DNA of 64,000 nucleotides from an uncultured Alphaproteobacteria bacterium. Lineage in GTDB: Bacteria; Pseudomonadota; Alphaproteobacteria; Rs-D84. Location: assembly GCA_944392815.1 (NCBI GenBank), contig CALXXY010000001.1, positions 133,141 to 197,140 on the forward strand. The letters are read 5' to 3'. Each line of letters opens with the position of its first letter. The first letter of the stretch is position 1. Shown here in pieces: positions 26,332 through 33,227 of this stretch. Below the pieces are notes generated by a model that worked only from the letters and a program-made list of their open reading frames with translations, did no database searches and was not told the DNA's origin. Both the position numbers and the translations under genes were made by a program.

Positions 26332-26366
26332 AAAAAAATATCCGGGGTGACCCGGATATTTTTTAT
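26332..26366. terminator. Bidirectional terminator
   Basis: atatccggg-gtga-cccggatat + T6. Confidence 0.7.
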
Positions 26367-27961
26367 TCTGCGGCGGACACGCGGGTAAATGCGCCATTGT
26401 CCAACATTTCGCGCACGGCGAAATTTTTAATCTTGCGCGCAGATGTTTGTGGCAATTCCTGTTCTGTTATCGCGAAATTACGCACCCATTTATATGGCGC
26501 AATTTTTAAATTTGACGATTTTACCAACGCAGAAACACGCGCAGCCGATGTGCCGGGCGCAACCTGGAATACCGCAAACGGTACAGTTTTGCCACGAATC
26601 ACGTATTCAAACACAGCCGCGGCCAGGATTTCTGAGTTTTGCATGTATAAATCTTCTAATTCGTCGGGATATACATTTTTACCACTGTCCAGAACGATGA
26701 CCTGTTTTTTACGACCCTTTACCACCAGGCGGCCACGTTTATCCAGTTTGCCCAAATCACCTGTTTTGAACCAACCGTTTTCAAACGCCGCCGCATTTGC
26801 GTCGTCATTATCAACATATCCAGGCATAACCAATTTACCACGCACCCAAATTTCACCAACCCCGTGTTTGTCGGGATTATGAATTTCAATTTCATTGCCC
26901 GGCAATGGGCCTGCATAGTGCATGGAACCGTCCGGCAACCGAAACGCGAAATTAAAATTCGCCGGACCGGTTGTTTCCGTCAATCCATAACAGTCACCAA
27001 CAACGAATCCCAGTCGTTCGAAAAATTTCCGAATTGTGGGCTTTAACGTTGCGCCGGCAGACACCAGAACTTTGGTGCGGCCACCAAACAAATCGTGCAC
27101 AGGTTTGGTCACTTTGTTCACAATTGCCCCCAACCCAATGGCACGCAGCACGTGACGCAACGATACAACCACGCGCATTAATGTGTATACATGCTTTTCT
27201 TTGGCTGTGGCGATGATTTTTTTATAGAACGTTTCCCAAATACGCGGAACTGCGGGGATAACTTCGGGCTTGAACTTTTTAAAATCTGCCATAAATTCAC
27301 GCGGGTTTAACACAGGTTGCAACAGCAATTTACCACGCAGCACCAGCGGCGCGATAATATTAATCACCACGCCATATATGTGATACAGCGGTAAAAATCC
27401 ATAAAAAGTATATCCAGGGTGAATGACTGGGCTGTAAAACAATGCGCCATCGCCCAATGATATAATGTTATCGTGGGTTAAACCAACAACCTTTGGATTG
27501 CCGGTTGATCCAGACGTAAATGACAACATCGCAATATCATCGCGTTTGGCCGGGGCCGCAACAAATTCGCGGGCGTCTGTGTCATCAACCGATTCTATGT
27601 CGAACATTTTTGGCACACCGCGACCGGCCACGAAATATTCGCGCTGGGCCAATACCAATTTACATTTCGTGCGGCGCATCATATTAATGTGTTCGGACGA
27701 CGCCAGACCCGTATCCAACATCAAAACGCGTGCGCCCTGGGATACTATGGCGAAATACGAACGTATGAAATCCGGTGTGTTGCCGGATAAAATCGCAACT
27801 GTATCACCACGTTTTACACCGAATTTTTTTGCCAACAGAACCGCGCGTTGTTTCACACGGCGCAATAAATCTGCATAGGTTTCGTTCTGTCTGACAAAGA
27901 AAATACGGTCTTTGTTCTGGGAACATACCTGGTGCAGCATGTCATAGATATTTTTTATCAT
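26363..27961 (-). CDS. AMP-dependent synthetase/ligase (long-chain acyl-CoA / acyl-ACP synthetase-like)
   Basis: AMP-binding motif SFTSGSTGNPKVV; 532 aa. Confidence 0.8.
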   Translation of the reverse strand: MIKNIYDMLHQVCSQNKDRIFFVRQNETYADLLRRVKQRAVLLAKKFGVKRGDTVAILSGNTPDFIRSYFAIVSQGARVLMLDTGLASSEHINMMRRTKCKLVLAQREYFVAGRGVPKMFDIESVDDTDAREFVAAPAKRDDIAMLSFTSGSTGNPKVVGLTHDNIISLGDGALFYSPVIHPGYTFYGFLPLYHIYGVVINIIAPLVLRGKLLLQPVLNPREFMADFKKFKPEVIPAVPRIWETFYKKIIATAKEKHVYTLMRVVVSLRHVLRAIGLGAIVNKVTKPVHDLFGGRTKVLVSAGATLKPTIRKFFERLGFVVGDCYGLTETTGPANFNFAFRLPDGSMHYAGPLPGNEIEIHNPDKHGVGEIWVRGKLVMPGYVDNDDANAAAFENGWFKTGDLGKLDKRGRLVVKGRKKQVIVLDSGKNVYPDELEDLYMQNSEILAAAVFEYVIRGKTVPFAVFQVAPGTSAARVSALVKSSNLKIAPYKWVRNFAITEQELPQTSARKIKNFAVREMLDNGAFTRVSAAE

Positions 27962-28327
27962 TAAATTTTCTCTTTGGTTAATATGCGAATTATTTCACAT
28001 ATATATGAACTATACACATTTTTGGGCCGGAATGACAACCTATTTCATTAAATGGGCAAAATTCACAAAAACTTGTCAAAAAAAGCGGTCATTTATCCGT
28101 CAATTTGTCAATATATAGATATTGATTCGTTATTTTTTATCTATATTTTGTATTTTTGATAAAAAACCGAATCATTTCCCAGGTGAAAAATCTGATTTTT
28201 TTAATACAAAAATTCGTTTGGTATCCGATTCAAGTGAATCGGACAGGCGTCAATGCCCCGGAAAATCCCCTTTTTAAAAAGTAAAGCGAAAAATAAAAAT
28301 TTTTTTCATTTTTATGTGTTGTTAGTA

Positions 28328-28386
28328 ATTCATATATACTATATATTGTTATCAAATAACGGAAACAACCACTATATATTGTGTTT
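28328..28386 (+). promoter_or_regulatory. Two candidate NrdR boxes upstream of nrdD
   Basis: tcatatatactatatattg and accactatatattgtgtt, ~35 bp centre-to-centre, 25-80 bp upstream of the nrdD ATG. Confidence 0.4.
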
Positions 28387-28408: not shown

Positions 28409-30463
28409 ATGGCTGGGACAGAAAACGATAACAAAATGCAGATTATTCCGACACTTACCACGCGACTGAAAGTTGTTCAGAAACGTTCTGGGGAATCGGT
28501 TCCATTTGATGCGAAAAAAATTTTTGACGCTGTGAAAAAGGCGGTTGCCGTCACGCATGAAATTTCGGACGAGCAAATTGTCGCCATTACGCAAAGCGCG
28601 CTGAATAAATTGGAATCCAAATTTACAGAAAAAAATCCAACAGTCGAAGATGTCCAGGAATCGGTTATTGAATCGCTGATGGACGCGCGTGCGTATAAAA
28701 CTGCGGAATCATATATTATATATCGTCAAAAACGCAGCGAAATTCGTGATTCGTATGTTGACGCGGTCGAAATTATCGAGGGCTATGTCGGTGGTTCCAA
28801 TTGGCGTATCAAGGAAAACGCCAATATCGGTTATTCCATTGGCGGGTTGATTTTGCGTACATCTGAACGTGTGACCGCAGAATACTGGTTGAATTTATAC
28901 CCCCGCGAAGTGGCCGAGGCCCACAAAAACGCCGCGATACATATTCATGACCTGGGGTGGTTGACTGGGTATTGCGCGGGTTGGTCACTGCGCGAATTAT
29001 TGTACGAGGGATTCAACGGTGTTCCCGGATATTTACAGTGCGAACCCGCCAAACATATGGCAACTGCGATTTCCCACATGGTGAATTTCCTGGGGACATT
29101 GCAGAATGAATTTGCCGGTGCCCAGGCGTTTTCGTCCGTGGACACATATCTGGCCCCATATGTCAGAATTGACAATATGACATATGCAGATGTTAAAAAT
29201 GCTATGCAGACGTTGGTGTTTAACTGTGCTGTGCCATGTCGTTGGGGCACCCAGACACCGTTTATCAATTTCACATTTGACTGGACCTGTCCCGAAGATT
29301 TAAAGAATCAGCGCCCATTCGTTGGCAAAAAGCAAATGGATTTCACATATGGCGAATTGCAAAACGAAATGGACATGATTAACAAAGCATTTCTGGAGGT
29401 CATGACCGAAGGTGACGCCCTGGGGCGGCCGTTTACGTTCCCTATTCCGACATATAACATCACAAATGATTTCCCGTGGGAACACCCGAATGTCAAACCT
29501 TTGTTTGATTTGGCGGCAAAATACGGTATTCCGAATTTCCAAAACTTTCTGAATTCCGATTTGAATCCGACAGATGTGCGTTCTATGTGTTGTCGGTTGC
29601 GTCTGGACGTGCGTGAATTGTTAAAACGTGGTGGCGGACTGTTTGGATCGGCGGAAAAAACGGGTTCTATTGGTGTGGTGACAATTAACCTGGCACGGTT
29701 GGGATACACGCACAAGGGCGACCGCGAAGGTTTATTCCGCGAATTAAAACGTTTATTGGATTTGGCACGTGATTCGTTGGAAATCAAACGTCGTATTATT
29801 ACCAAAAATATGGAACGCGGACTGTATCCGTTTACCCGCAGATATTTGGGCAATTGGGATCATCATTTTTCAACCATCGGTGTGAATGGCGCAAATGAAA
29901 TGGTGCGTAATTTCACAAACGATCGCGAAAATATCGCAACGCCAATGGGTAAAAAACTGGTGCTGGATTTGATGGATTTCATTCGTGAAAATCTGGCCAC
30001 GTTCCAGGAACAAACCGGCAACCTGTATAATCTGGAGGCCACCCCAGCCGAGGGCTGTTCATACAGATTTGCAAAAACAGACGTGAAAAATTTCCCGGAT
30101 ATTATAACCGCCGGTACCCACGACGCGCCGTATTATACAAATTCGACGCAGTTGCCTGTGAATTACACAGACGACCCGTTCGTTGCCCTGGAACACCAGG
30201 AAGAATTACAACGCAAATATACTGGTGGAACTATGTTGCATTTGTATATGGGCGAACCTGTTTCCAGTGGCGAAGCCGCGGAAAAAATCGTGCGTACGAT
30301 TTTCGAAAATTACAAGATTCCGTACATGACGCTGACACCGACATTCTCGATTTGTCCGAAACATGGGTATTTGCCTGGCCGGCACGAGTTTTGTCCGAAA
30401 TGCGATGCTGAAATCGCGGCAAATCAAAATGCGGAATCCGCAACAGTTTCACAAGAAAAATAA
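28409..30463 (+). CDS. nrdD: Anaerobic ribonucleoside-triphosphate reductase (class III), lacking the glycyl-radical tail
   Basis: Start at ATG 28409 (MAGTENDNKMQIIP..); ATP-cone (VQKRSGESVPFDAKKIFDAV); C-terminal Zn site ...ICPKHGYLPGRHEFCPKCDAE; stops at TAA 30461 before the glycyl-radical motif. Confidence 0.85.
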   Translation: MAGTENDNKMQIIPTLTTRLKVVQKRSGESVPFDAKKIFDAVKKAVAVTHEISDEQIVAITQSALNKLESKFTEKNPTVEDVQESVIESLMDARAYKTAESYIIYRQKRSEIRDSYVDAVEIIEGYVGGSNWRIKENANIGYSIGGLILRTSERVTAEYWLNLYPREVAEAHKNAAIHIHDLGWLTGYCAGWSLRELLYEGFNGVPGYLQCEPAKHMATAISHMVNFLGTLQNEFAGAQAFSSVDTYLAPYVRIDNMTYADVKNAMQTLVFNCAVPCRWGTQTPFINFTFDWTCPEDLKNQRPFVGKKQMDFTYGELQNEMDMINKAFLEVMTEGDALGRPFTFPIPTYNITNDFPWEHPNVKPLFDLAAKYGIPNFQNFLNSDLNPTDVRSMCCRLRLDVRELLKRGGGLFGSAEKTGSIGVVTINLARLGYTHKGDREGLFRELKRLLDLARDSLEIKRRIITKNMERGLYPFTRRYLGNWDHHFSTIGVNGANEMVRNFTNDRENIATPMGKKLVLDLMDFIRENLATFQEQTGNLYNLEATPAEGCSYRFAKTDVKNFPDIITAGTHDAPYYTNSTQLPVNYTDDPFVALEHQEELQRKYTGGTMLHLYMGEPVSSGEAAEKIVRTIFENYKIPYMTLTPTFSICPKHGYLPGRHEFCPKCDAEIAANQNAESATVSQEK

Positions 30464-30493
30464 CTAAACAAAAAAAACAGGGAGGAAAACATT

Positions 30494-30679
30494 ATGGCAG
30501 CAGAAAACACGCAAAGAACACAATGTGAAGTATTTTCACGTTCAATGGGGTTCATCAGACCTGTGTCCAATTTTAACATTGGCAAATATTCTGAATTCTG
30601 CGAAAGAAAAACGTTTACCGAAGCGAACAGTTTAACAACTGGTCAGCGTCATAGTGAACTGATGAAAAAAGCTGCATAA
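30494..30679 (+). CDS. Separate 61-aa ORF encoding the NrdD glycyl-radical C-terminal motif
   Basis: cagggagg RBS 8 nt before the ATG; CEVFSRSMGFIRPVSNFNIGKYSEFCERKTF matches the NrdD SR..GY.RPV..WN.GK..EF..RK.. glycyl-radical region; same reading frame as nrdD, separated by one in-frame TAA. Confidence 0.55.
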   Translation: MAAENTQRTQCEVFSRSMGFIRPVSNFNIGKYSEFCERKTFTEANSLTTGQRHSELMKKAA

Positions 30680-30682
30680 GTT

Positions 30683-31384
30683 ATGAGAGAGATTCAGATT
30701 GGTGGATTGGTGTCGTTCACGACAATCGATTACCCCGGGAAATTGGCCGCGGTGCTGTTTCTGGTGGGTTGTCCGTTGCGGTGTGCGTATTGTTCCAATC
30801 CCCATCTGATACCATTGCACGACGGCGAATACGATCCTGAAAAGGTGTTTGATTGGCTGAAAAGCCGCGTTGGCAAGCTCGAGGCCGTCGTTTTTTCCGG
30901 GGGCGAAGCGTTGATGCAGGGCGACGCGTTGATTGATTATATGCGGCGCGTGCGTGAATTGGGATTCGCCATCGGATTACATACCAACGGTTTTTATCCA
31001 GAAACACTGGCACGCGCGGCCGATGTCGTGGACTGGATTGGTTTGGATTATAAAACTGTGCGCAACAAATACGGCGATTTGGTTGGGCAAAATATCGCGC
31101 ACGACCATATGGTTCGCAGTTTGACCACGTGGCAATCCACCGGCAAAGATTTCGAGGTTCGTATTACCTGTGACCCGCGTTTTGTGACCAAAATGGATTT
31201 GCTGGAAATCGCAAATGATTTGCATGCGCGTGGTGTGAAAAAATTCGCTGTACAGAAATATATCCCGCATTTCGAGGATTCAACCCATAACACCACACCA
31301 GAACAGCGCAATCAATTTTTTTCTGATGACAATTTACGCGATACAATTAATGCGCTGTTTGATTCTGTCACCTGGCGCGAATAA
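30683..31384 (+). CDS. nrdG: Anaerobic RNR-activating protein (radical SAM)
   Basis: CPLRCAYCSNPH CX3CX2C cluster motif; 233 aa. Confidence 0.85.
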   Translation: MREIQIGGLVSFTTIDYPGKLAAVLFLVGCPLRCAYCSNPHLIPLHDGEYDPEKVFDWLKSRVGKLEAVVFSGGEALMQGDALIDYMRRVRELGFAIGLHTNGFYPETLARAADVVDWIGLDYKTVRNKYGDLVGQNIAHDHMVRSLTTWQSTGKDFEVRITCDPRFVTKMDLLEIANDLHARGVKKFAVQKYIPHFEDSTHNTTPEQRNQFFSDDNLRDTINALFDSVTWRE

Positions 31385-31448
31385 TCGTGATTTTTCCACT
31401 GTTTTGTGATATAATTGATGGCATAATTGATGACAAAGGAATTTGTTC

Positions 31449-33227
31449 ATGCCAAAAACTATGTTTGATATCATAAAAAAGCAAAATGGTGAACGTTTTG
31501 CCAAGGCAATTCGCAATTACGACAATGGGATTTTTGATATTCCGAATCTGGATACAATTGTCAAACATGCCGGTCGCGAAGCCGAACCAATTATGGCGTA
31601 TTTAATATCGCTGAAAAATATTGAAATAAACGAAATGGCTGTGCATATGGATCCGATTAAATTGTTGGATCGCGCGGGATATAACGCATATGTGGTGCAC
31701 AATCTGGCCGAACAGAACGCAATCAAAAAATATTTTGCCCCGGGCGAGGAATTGTGCACTTTCCACGATCCGCACAGATTTGAAAAATACTATATCATAA
31801 ACGCTGTACGCAAGGACGTGGATAATATTCGCCGGGCTGATTTTAAAAATCCCAAACGCGAAGATGAATACGGCACATCGGTCATTTCCATTCAGGTATT
31901 AAAAACTGGCGGATTTATCAGTATCAAAAACAGATATAATCACACTGTTGAAAATCCAGATAATACGTTGAATTCGAATCCTGATAATATTATCCCTGGA
32001 TTGGCGGACGCGATAAAGCACCATTTTAACGTGGATTTTGCGTCACATCATGTGGATTTACCAATTAATTATACCACCATGAACAACCAGATTTTAAAAT
32101 ATAATCTGGAGGTTGAAAATACCTATATCGGGCCGGATTTTTACGCACGCGATGGGCGTGTGTTTGACATTAACAAAGATTATGAAATTATTTTGGACAC
32201 AATCGTATTCAATACAAAAACCAAAGAATTCAAATCTATTGCCCACGCGGACGGTGATTGGCAGATGATTAGTGCACTGTCGACCGCCATTAATGGGAAA
32301 AAGGTAAAAATACAAAACGCGGACAACGACACAAAAATACTGATTGCGGGCGATACACCGATTGTCACATTCCAAAACGGGCAAATATTGTCGCTGAATT
32401 TGCCAAACGTGCGCGAAATCGGCAATTATTTTGCGTTGGATTGTCAAAAATTGACCAGCGTGTCTATGCCTGATTTGGAAACAATGGGCACCAACTGTTT
32501 TCAATTTAATACATTGGAACATGTGAATATGCCGAAATTGCGCGAAATCGGTGAAATGTCTTTCTATAAATGCAGAAATTTACAGGAAATAAACCTGCCG
32601 CAGGTGCAAAAAATGGGCAGTTTCTGTTTTACTGGCGTTTATCAACTGAAAAATGTTAATATGCCACAACTGCGATATGTCGGGGATCATATGTTTCACA
32701 CTGCACCCGCGCTGACTGTGTTGGATTTGCCAAATTTGCAACGCATGGGGCAAAACTGTGTTATGAACGCACAGTTGAAAACAGTGAATTTGCCACAGCT
32801 GCAATCTGTTGACAATAATTGTTTTGTGAATGGTTGTGCCGTGACGGAACTGGATTTGCCGAATTTACAGCATATGGGAAATGTCGTGTTTTACGATGCG
32901 CCACAATTACGCAGTGTAAACGCGCCCAAATTGCAAAACATGGGCGCATTCTGTTTCCGCGCCAGCCAAAATGCCACACATGTATATATGCCGCAACTGC
33001 AACATATCAGCCAGGGCTGTTTTGAATCCAATGCAACCGTTTTCGAAAAACTGGATTCCATCAGAAATATTTCCGGCGAAATCGCCCCGGGGGGATTGGT
33101 CGTCGACCCCGCCGTTGATAACAGTGGCACAAAAAAACTGTTCATGCGCGCCATACAGAAAATTACCAATTACGGCAAAACAAAAAATAAAATCACACCA
33201 ACCAAGGATAATCACAATGACCGATAA
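31449..33227 (+). CDS. BspA-type leucine-rich-repeat (LRR_5) protein with unknown N-terminal domain
   Basis: About 13 tandem ~23-aa repeats of the form LPnLq.iG..cF..c..L..vn.P; N-terminal 300 aa unassigned. Confidence 0.6.
   Translation: MPKTMFDIIKKQNGERFAKAIRNYDNGIFDIPNLDTIVKHAGREAEPIMAYLISLKNIEINEMAVHMDPIKLLDRAGYNAYVVHNLAEQNAIKKYFAPGEELCTFHDPHRFEKYYIINAVRKDVDNIRRADFKNPKREDEYGTSVISIQVLKTGGFISIKNRYNHTVENPDNTLNSNPDNIIPGLADAIKHHFNVDFASHHVDLPINYTTMNNQILKYNLEVENTYIGPDFYARDGRVFDINKDYEIILDTIVFNTKTKEFKSIAHADGDWQMISALSTAINGKKVKIQNADNDTKILIAGDTPIVTFQNGQILSLNLPNVREIGNYFALDCQKLTSVSMPDLETMGTNCFQFNTLEHVNMPKLREIGEMSFYKCRNLQEINLPQVQKMGSFCFTGVYQLKNVNMPQLRYVGDHMFHTAPALTVLDLPNLQRMGQNCVMNAQLKTVNLPQLQSVDNNCFVNGCAVTELDLPNLQHMGNVVFYDAPQLRSVNAPKLQNMGAFCFRASQNATHVYMPQLQHISQGCFESNATVFEKLDSIRNISGEIAPGGLVVDPAVDNSGTKKLFMRAIQKITNYGKTKNKITPTKDNHNDR

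Follow-up and report, generated by a model that had tools for sequence, protein, structure and literature searches.

A split nrdD operon in Proteobacteria with the predicted glycyl-radical loop of class III ribonucleotide reductase on a small separate protein

Introduction

How does a class III ribonucleotide reductase (RNR) work if its catalytic chain ends before the glycine that should carry the radical? The question is raised by a stretch of 64,000 nucleotides from an uncultured alphaproteobacterium (GenBank assembly GCA_944392815.1, contig CALXXY010000001.1, positions 133,141 to 197,140; hereafter the window), in which the nrdD gene, coding for the reductase, and nrdG, coding for its radical-SAM activase, are separated by an open reading frame (ORF) of 61 amino acids (aa) that holds the glycyl-radical signature absent from nrdD. 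Class III RNRs are described as α2 homodimers with their own glycyl radical (PMC2795772; PMC4520616). In the NrdD of T. maritima, a zinc ribbon of the form CxxxHx6CxxC follows the last barrel strand and precedes the C-terminal loop, from which Gly621 dips into the barrel (PMC4493059), and the glycyl radical domain of P. copri NrdD, which comprises a zinc site, a buried Gly711 loop and a tail running across the protein surface, is highly mobile (PMC11226230).

The original prediction for this locus offered three readings of the interrupted gene: a genuine two-piece NrdD with a free-standing glycyl-radical subunit, a programmed read-through of the stop codon, and a nonsense mutation or sequencing error. 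Here we compare the locus with its relatives and conclude that it very probably represents a real, conserved fission of a class III RNR gene, giving a three-gene operon of nrdD body, small subunit and nrdG.

Results

The split nrdD locus

Read from its ATG at 28409, the nrdD body has the C-terminus ...FCPKCDAEIAANQNAESATVSQEK, after which the TAA stop follows. The NCBIfam model NF006126 matches the body with 1033 bits (cutoff 548) over profile positions 3-662 of 684, and Pfam places an ATP-cone at residues 22-111 and the NRDD domain (PF13597) at residues 136-667 (E=3.4e-172), the latter over profile positions 1-529 of 562. In an alignment of 15 Alpha- and Betaproteobacterial bodies, the MCCR finger loop is invariant, as are C189 and the predicted zinc ligands C649, H652, C662 and C665 of a zinc ribbon called by sequence only. 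MCCR is described as the NrdDh4 variant of SCCR (PMC4493059), and by this motif the body resembles that variant. The chain stops 19 residues past C665, the last zinc-ribbon cysteine, with a short and poorly conserved tail, and the glycine loop is not on it. Among the features of a class III enzyme, the barrel, the finger-loop cysteine, the zinc ribbon and an adjacent NrdG are all found here, and the glycine loop on the barrel chain is absent.

The missing part is found on the small ORF, which contains FSRSMGFIRPVSNFNIGKYSEFCERKTF, the signature already pointed out in the original prediction, with the predicted radical glycine G19 in R-S-M-G-F (codon 30548-30550). It covers positions 649-682 of NF006126, and on the Pfam model the two ORFs are complementary, the body taking NRDD positions 1-529 and the small ORF positions 530-562 of 562. 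In a Pfam scan of the small ORF at E<=0.1, NRDD was the sole match, and Gly_radical, the domain of the pyruvate formate-lyase (PFL) type, was not hit.

Among the matches listed for the body, 120 homologues are 668-713 aa long and 87-96% identical over 98-100% of the body; none has a tail, and because they are too short, a fused tail of ~60 aa is ruled out in all of them. These lengths bear on the possibility that the small protein is a spare part, that is, a back-up radical domain for a full-length NrdD whose own glycine loop has been destroyed by oxygen. GrcA/YfiD (and Y06I of phage T4), the autonomous glycyl radical cofactor of PFL, is the precedent for such a role (PMC13450708), and a small free-standing glycine-loop protein beside an activase is what one would look for. 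Like GrcA, the small protein stands alone and is homologous to the radical domain of a parent enzyme, which here is NrdD and not PFL; both are presumably radicalised by the activase of the parent and dock into its barrel (PMC13450708). However, GrcA, a PFL derivative, restores a full-length enzyme that oxygen has cleaved, whereas the small protein here derives from NrdD, excludes the zinc ribbon and is the sole loop for its partner; it lacks the PFL-type Gly_radical domain, and no full-length parent with its own loop is present at the locus. Since neither the adjacent body nor its listed homologues have a glycine loop, the small protein is the only visible radical source and not a spare one, and we consider a back-up role improbable. 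Of the analogy to GrcA/YfiD drawn in the original prediction, the free-standing glycyl-radical protein stands, while the back-up of a full-length enzyme does not carry over.

The stop codon and the spacer

The original prediction described an in-frame ATG 30 nucleotides (nt) past the TAA of nrdD, opening the small ORF behind a strong ribosome-binding site of its own, with nrdG directly downstream in an otherwise intact operon, and the sequence is as described: the Shine-Dalgarno motif GGGAGG lies 8 nt before the ATG at 30494, and nrdG starts 3 nt past the stop of the small ORF. Translated across the gap, the window reads ...SQEK*LNKKNREENIMAAENTQ, with exactly one stop, after which the frame continues as LNKKNREENI up to the ATG. 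This layout, two ORFs in one frame with a single stop and a spacer otherwise open, is what would favour programmed read-through of the TAA, or another form of recoding, into a single fused NrdD.

The relatives speak against it. Over 90 non-redundant related loci, the small ORF is spread across all three frames relative to nrdD (frames 0, 1 and 2 with 34, 31 and 25 cases, respectively); the spacer ranges from -26 nt (an overlap) to +142 nt, some gene pairs sharing 4 or 26 nt; of the 34 spacers that keep the frame, 14 hold a further in-frame stop; and a strong Shine-Dalgarno motif was scored just upstream of the small-ORF start in 85 of the 90. Even among ten contigs encoding the identical small protein, nine have the two ORFs out of frame, 29 nt apart, and in eight of these the only difference from the window is A7 for A8 in a homopolymer. 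Around the stop no stable RNA structure was found (minimum free energy -4.5 kcal/mol, z +1.18, a value that 175 of 200 shuffles equalled or bettered), and the window holds no suppressor-like tRNA, its four tRNAs (Asp, Glu, Leu, Ser) being ordinary ones. We therefore hold read-through to be highly unlikely. The length polymorphism of the A run by itself decides whether the two ORFs are in frame and, because the frame varies even among contigs with an identical small protein, the in-frame position of the TAA in the window is best read as a coincidence of the A8 homopolymer length. Of the 'single in-frame TAA' of the original prediction, the single stop is thus correct for the window, but the in-frame relation is unconserved.

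As to the homopolymer itself (30470-30477), A8 occurs in the window and in one further contig (L006), while eight others that encode the identical small protein have A7; differently arranged spacers are found in L002 (29 nt) and L011 (28 nt).

A sequencing or assembly error, or a recent nonsense mutation that would make nrdD a pseudogene, has nothing in its favour beyond the bare presence of a stop codon. The stop is kept at the equivalent place in the 90 related loci, with no sense codon in its stead (it is TAA, occasionally TAG, in the Enterousia-clade loci for which the codon is listed), and the same position recurs in independent assemblies from many samples and species and in finished replicons of cultured bacteria. 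Together with the purifying selection on both pieces described below, this makes an error or pseudogene scarcely credible, and neither of the two readings that would restore a single chain has withstood the comparison.

Distribution of the split

The identical 61-aa protein is indexed in 315 public assembly blocks, and the gene order AMP-ligase (on the reverse strand), nrdD, small ORF, nrdG, leucine-rich repeat (LRR) protein and peptidyl-prolyl isomerase (PPIase) was found in all ten contigs examined. A word-index search returned 351 clusters of small-protein homologues, the best 120 of which are all 59-91 aa long and 79-98% identical, several of them named 'MAG: Alphaproteobacteria bacterium' (MAG, metagenome-assembled genome); the longer homologues reflect upstream start calls in another frame, running back over the 3' end of nrdD. 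With one genome taken per GTDB species, relatives of the small protein occur in 246 species, the best match (100%) being that of Candidatus Enterousia excrementavium, a gut alphaproteobacterium. We retrieved 80 loci; a motif search placed the small ORF beside nrdD in 76, and in all 76 the two are separate ORFs.

Beyond this clade, a profile of the small protein searched against 1.84 billion 50%-identity representatives gave 2,472 matches at E<=1e-3. The best 150 of these are all 47-118 aa long and almost all Met-initiated, with the consensus ERTxCEVWTRVMGYHRPVSxFNIGKKxEFxERKxF. A second search with a diverse profile yielded at least 7,997 clusters at 90% identity, among them a 57-aa RefSeq protein of Turicimonas muris present on at least 1,000 contigs. 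Among the 270 relatives retrieved, 267 stand alone, and one, P0356, is a fused fragment that includes the zinc ribbon. Loci of the Sutterellaceae (Turicimonas) type comprise an nrdD of 675-694 aa, a small ORF of 57-58 aa and nrdG, with spacers of 34, 2 and -26 nt.

The arrangement is also present on plasmids and chromids, where tblastn identified 162 records, most of them from Ralstonia (133), followed by Bradyrhizobium (7), Cupriavidus (5) and Paracoccus (4), with further records in Allochromatium, Acidiphilium, Aquabacterium, Cereibacter, Sulfuricystis and Thiothrix. The genera listed as carriers are mostly those of facultative anaerobes or denitrifiers, plus gut bacteria, a pattern that is suggestive only. 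On pHG1 of Cupriavidus necator H16, RefSeq lists a 676-aa 'ribonucleoside triphosphate reductase' ending ...CPRCDEEILARKRDQLAA and, 142 nt past this coding sequence (CDS), a 66-aa 'nrdD' (WP_011154154.1) that overlaps nrdG. In Bradyrhizobium barranii, CDSs of 678 and 63 aa are followed by nrdG; the two genes are separated by 14 nt in Paracoccus denitrificans and overlap by 4 nt in Ralstonia solanacearum; and in Thiothrix a 63-aa 'nrdD', a Gammaproteobacterial small CDS, adjoins nrdG.

The case of Thiothrix fructosivorans pTfr153 (L183, 1485-3176) is peculiar in that the 63-aa 'nrdD' and nrdG are listed with no body CDS upstream, where an unannotated gap of just ~1.7 kb lies; this points to a gap in the PLSDB gene table or to a body that has become a pseudogene there.

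In Enterousia, Sutterellaceae, Cupriavidus, Ralstonia and Paracoccus, the split falls at a common point, after CP.C(D)(E/Q) and before ER[TQ].CE. Across 15 pairs of body and small protein from Alpha- and Betaproteobacteria (55-93% identity), no residue is invariant from E668 of the body to R8 of the small protein, which places the fission in the variable linker that joins the zinc ribbon to the glycine loop. According to work cited in PMC2864759, nrdDG of C. necator is reported to be necessary for complete denitrification and, because these genes are split in the same way, the split system appears to work in vivo.

Conservation of the small subunit

In 76 small ORFs of the Enterousia clade, nucleotide diversity at codon positions 1, 2 and 3 is 0.132, 0.069 and 0.429, a pattern that, with the invariant residues of the body, indicates purifying selection on the small ORF and on the catalytic residues of the body. 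The residues G19, N28, G30, K31, E34 and R38 are invariant in a set of 133 diverse small proteins, and R8, C11, E12, R16, M18, R22, P23 and F41 nearly so. A search of the PDB by sequence with the small-protein profile gave no match at E<=10. Wide conservation, purifying selection and an arrangement independent of frame all argue for the first of the originally proposed readings, a two-piece NrdD with a free-standing glycyl-radical subunit.

Several further features of the small proteins were observed. C11 (30524-30526), a cysteine 8 residues ahead of the radical glycine (in RTxCE), is kept nearly throughout two samples and without exception in a third. It is not among the four zinc-ribbon ligands, and the fused fragment P0356 has its equivalent too. 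Residues 43-61 (30620-30676) form a 19-residue C-terminal extension, TExNSLxxGxRHxELxKKAA, that is conserved in the Enterousia clade, with E43, N45, G50, R52 and H53 invariant, and that lies past the end of the Pfam and NCBIfam NrdD models; of its residues, only E43 is conserved in Betaproteobacterial small subunits. The small ORF of the window ends in ..KKAA (30674-30679), with A61 invariant and A60 nearly invariant in the Enterousia clade, and C-termini in 'AA' or 'AAx' (often LAAE, KKAA or IAA) are found in 56 of 266 relatives, as opposed to ~0.7 expected for 'AA' from composition, although the sequences are related and the counts not independent. We considered an ssrA-like degradation signal for this ending and rejected it: the enrichment is real, but the LAAE ending of many relatives is at odds with such a signal. 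In eight relatives (P0392, P0397, P0399, P0428, P0469, P0480, P0483 and P0499), the ERTRCE[IV]W motif is duplicated around an insert of ~40 aa (VSQDRxSSxxTQPxERPAGMPDR...), present twice in P0469, which looks like the in-frame insertion of a repeat element with target duplication.

Small-subunit genes on viral contigs

On predicted viral contigs (IMG/VR), 363 stretches encode NrdD-type small glycyl-radical proteins. In the best 80 of these 363 (L103-L182, with flanks of ±4 kb that are full in 35 of the 80), no fused small protein was found, and 77 have neither a body nor nrdG within 4 kb; an NrdD-like body is present within this distance only in L103, which is Enterousia-like, and in L131/L132, and nrdG only in L103.

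Examples of these viral genes lie beside tail-fibre-like genes (L107:3995-4162) or beside two radical-SAM genes (L127:3989-4174), and the viral small proteins match phrog_4132, annotated as of 'unknown function'.

Operon layout and neighbourhood

The features of the operon are collected in Table 1. The radical-SAM motif of nrdG, C30-x3-C34-x2-C37, is at 30770-30793, and in most of the 90 loci nrdG starts 2-10 nt past the small-ORF stop, close enough for a predicted translational coupling. A consensus scan found no terminator-like site on the + strand between nrdD, the small ORF and nrdG. Upstream of nrdD, a pattern search with the NrdR-box consensus gave 4 matches in the window against 1.7 expected, which are weak statistics taken alone.

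Table 1. Features of the split nrdD operon and its upstream region, in window coordinates
Feature	Position	Strand	Description and basis
sigma-70-like promoter match TTGTTA-17-TATATT	28319..28347	+	consensus scan, pattern match only; upstream of nrdD, overlaps NrdR-box-like palindrome 1
NrdR-box-like palindrome 1, ATACTATATATTGTTA	28336..28351	+	pattern search, 3 mismatches; 33 bp from palindrome 2
NrdR-box-like palindrome 2, CCACTATATATTGTGT	28369..28384	+	pattern search, 1 mismatch, matches on both strands
nrdD body	28409..30463	+	684-aa class III RNR catalytic chain with ATP-cone, barrel and zinc ribbon; without glycyl-radical loop
Finger-loop motif M393-C394-C395-R396 (MCCR)	29585..29596	+	read from sequence
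Zinc-ribbon ligand motif C649-x2-H652-x9-C662-x2-C665	30353..30403	+	sequence; last conserved element of body
TAA stop of nrdD body	30461..30463	+	sequence
Spacer	30464..30493	+	30 nt; A8 run 30470-30477; Shine-Dalgarno GGGAGG 30480-30485, 8 nt ahead of ATG 30494
Glycyl-radical small subunit, 61 aa	30494..30679	+	Pfam NRDD positions 530-562
nrdG activase, 233 aa	30683..31384	+	TIGR02495 NrdG2, 184 bits vs cutoff 131; Pfam Radical_SAM and Fer4_12
Weak terminator-like hairpin at nrdG end	31376..31389	+	consensus scan

Divergently upstream of nrdD lies an AMP-binding (acyl-CoA-ligase-like) gene (26363-27961, - strand), and a gene of this kind occupies the same place in Sutterellaceae loci (L094-L099). 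We considered its co-inheritance with the operon and set it aside: the window and Sutterellaceae proteins are just 31% identical over 210 aa, and the shared position may be a coincidence. Downstream of nrdG, the LRR_5 repeat protein (31443-33227) varies in length between 592 and 600 aa, and the genes beyond the PPIase (past about 8.2 kb in L001-L010) differ between contigs with an identical small protein, which points to a strain-variable region.

Discussion

A two-chain class III reductase

With the glycine loop missing from the body, the small protein should be obligatory, and the locus is best understood as encoding an obligate two-chain class III RNR, for which glycyl radical formation and nucleoside triphosphate reduction are predicted. 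In such an enzyme, NrdG together with S-adenosylmethionine would abstract a hydrogen from G19 of the small protein, and the glycine loop of that protein would reach into the body, beside C394/C395 of the barrel, to form the active enzyme, probably as α2β2 and not as the canonical α2. Docking in trans is plausible because in fused NrdD the glycine loop, which comes after the zinc ribbon, reaches into the barrel, and the whole glycyl radical domain is highly mobile.

Some results and considerations weigh against this picture. AlphaFold2 gave the small protein alone, with a 134-sequence alignment, a mean predicted local distance difference test (pLDDT) score of 59.6, with the glycine loop below 50, and a concatenation of body and small protein, run without an alignment, was unusable (pLDDT 36.7). 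A second, fused nrdD may exist elsewhere in the genome, the view taken here being one of single loci. That the small protein is made, radicalised and bound by the body is, at each of these steps, a prediction from sequence, and the adaptive idea of a replaceable module, which draws on reasoning and on host habitat, is suggestive.

How the two chains would live together is a separate matter. Oxygen cleaves a glycyl-radical chain at the glycine. Damage would for this reason stay confined to the 7-kDa protein, which could be resynthesised and swapped, and the activase would have free access to its substrate, with no tethered domain to pull from the barrel; on this view the small subunit would be exchangeable. 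Taken to its full extent, the small protein would be a diffusible, consumable radical cofactor that is radicalised off the enzyme by NrdG, plugs into the body and is replaced after oxygen cleavage, with phages encoding orphan small subunits for the body of their host. We hold this extended form to be possible but rather unlikely.

A serious rival to such exchange is neutral gene fission, in which the two chains would form a permanent, tight α2β2 complex that acts like the fused enzyme, with no exchange of small subunits and no selective benefit. The position of the split in a naturally variable linker is in keeping with it, as are the conserved gene order and close spacing and the existence of the fused fragment P0356 with the same motif. 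On the other hand, 267 of the 270 retrieved relatives are split, across Alpha- and Betaproteobacteria and with a Gammaproteobacterial small CDS in addition, and the 77 of 80 viral loci that have the small gene without a body or nrdG nearby are hard to explain unless the protein acts in trans with a body encoded elsewhere. Weighing these points, we regard neutral fission as a possible explanation, somewhat less likely than not.

Comparison with known systems

With the canonical NrdD/NrdG systems (E. coli, phage T4, T. maritima, P. copri) the split enzyme shares the ATP-cone, the ten-stranded barrel with a cysteine finger loop, the zinc ribbon, the R-x-x-G-[YF] glycine loop, an adjacent radical-SAM activase and NrdR-type boxes upstream, which are predicted here. 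It differs in having a separate protein of 57-70 aa, translated independently, for the glycine loop and C-terminal tail, in the implied α2β2 and not α2 quaternary structure, and in a longer tail past the glycine (42 residues here and a median of 37 in the relatives, as opposed to 28 in P. copri (739 minus 711) and 30 in T. maritima (651 minus 621)).

Split reductases are known from class II, where NrdJa and NrdJb of Pseudomonas aeruginosa and its relatives are encoded by adjacent genes of one operon, with a C-terminal module on the small chain (PMC4520616; PMC9669993). In both, a proteobacterial RNR gene is divided at one constant site, leaving two neighbouring genes in an operon, but NrdJa/NrdJb are B12-dependent and NrdJb carries redox cysteines and a zinc finger and not the radical site, whereas the domain models identify the chains studied here as class III. 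Class I NrdA/NrdB likewise place a stable radical on a separate small subunit that docks on the catalytic one; this is a functional analogy only, as NrdB is a ferritin-like metalloprotein that acts by long-range radical transfer, while the radical glycine here is expected inside the barrel, and the two share no homology.

Meaning for the enzyme family

In a 2026 review, small radical-bearing spare-part proteins are known only for PFL/formate lyases, and for other glycyl radical enzymes they are 'yet to be determined' (PMC13450708). Our literature search found no description of a split NrdD, although subscription journals were largely outside its reach and the absence is no proof. The split is real and widespread and, to all appearances, an architectural variant of a familiar enzyme that has not been described before. 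What is new is the recognition and interpretation of the arrangement and not the gene calls, as RefSeq already annotates both pieces as CDSs. The small ORF is nonetheless easily missed: it is a 'hypothetical protein' in several MAG records, has no gene entry in the PLSDB tables for Ralstonia and Paracoccus, which are incomplete, and is skipped in the gene list of the C. metallidurans genome paper, where NrdDG appear as Rmet_5137 and Rmet_5139, without 5138. For annotation, this means that a 'ribonucleoside triphosphate reductase' of 675-690 aa is incomplete as an enzyme without the small ORF.

For the family, the arrangement offers a natural and widespread NrdD with the predicted radical glycine on a separate 7-kDa chain, present in the tractable bacteria C. 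necator H16, P. denitrificans and R. solanacearum. It opens the questions of how an activase reaches a glycine that lies buried once the enzyme is assembled, whether bodies exchange radical domains, and whether splitting limits oxygen damage in facultative anaerobes. Should the small protein indeed act as a diffusible cofactor, the system would be the class III counterpart of the class I α/β arrangement and the first instance of a 'spare-part' logic outside PFL.

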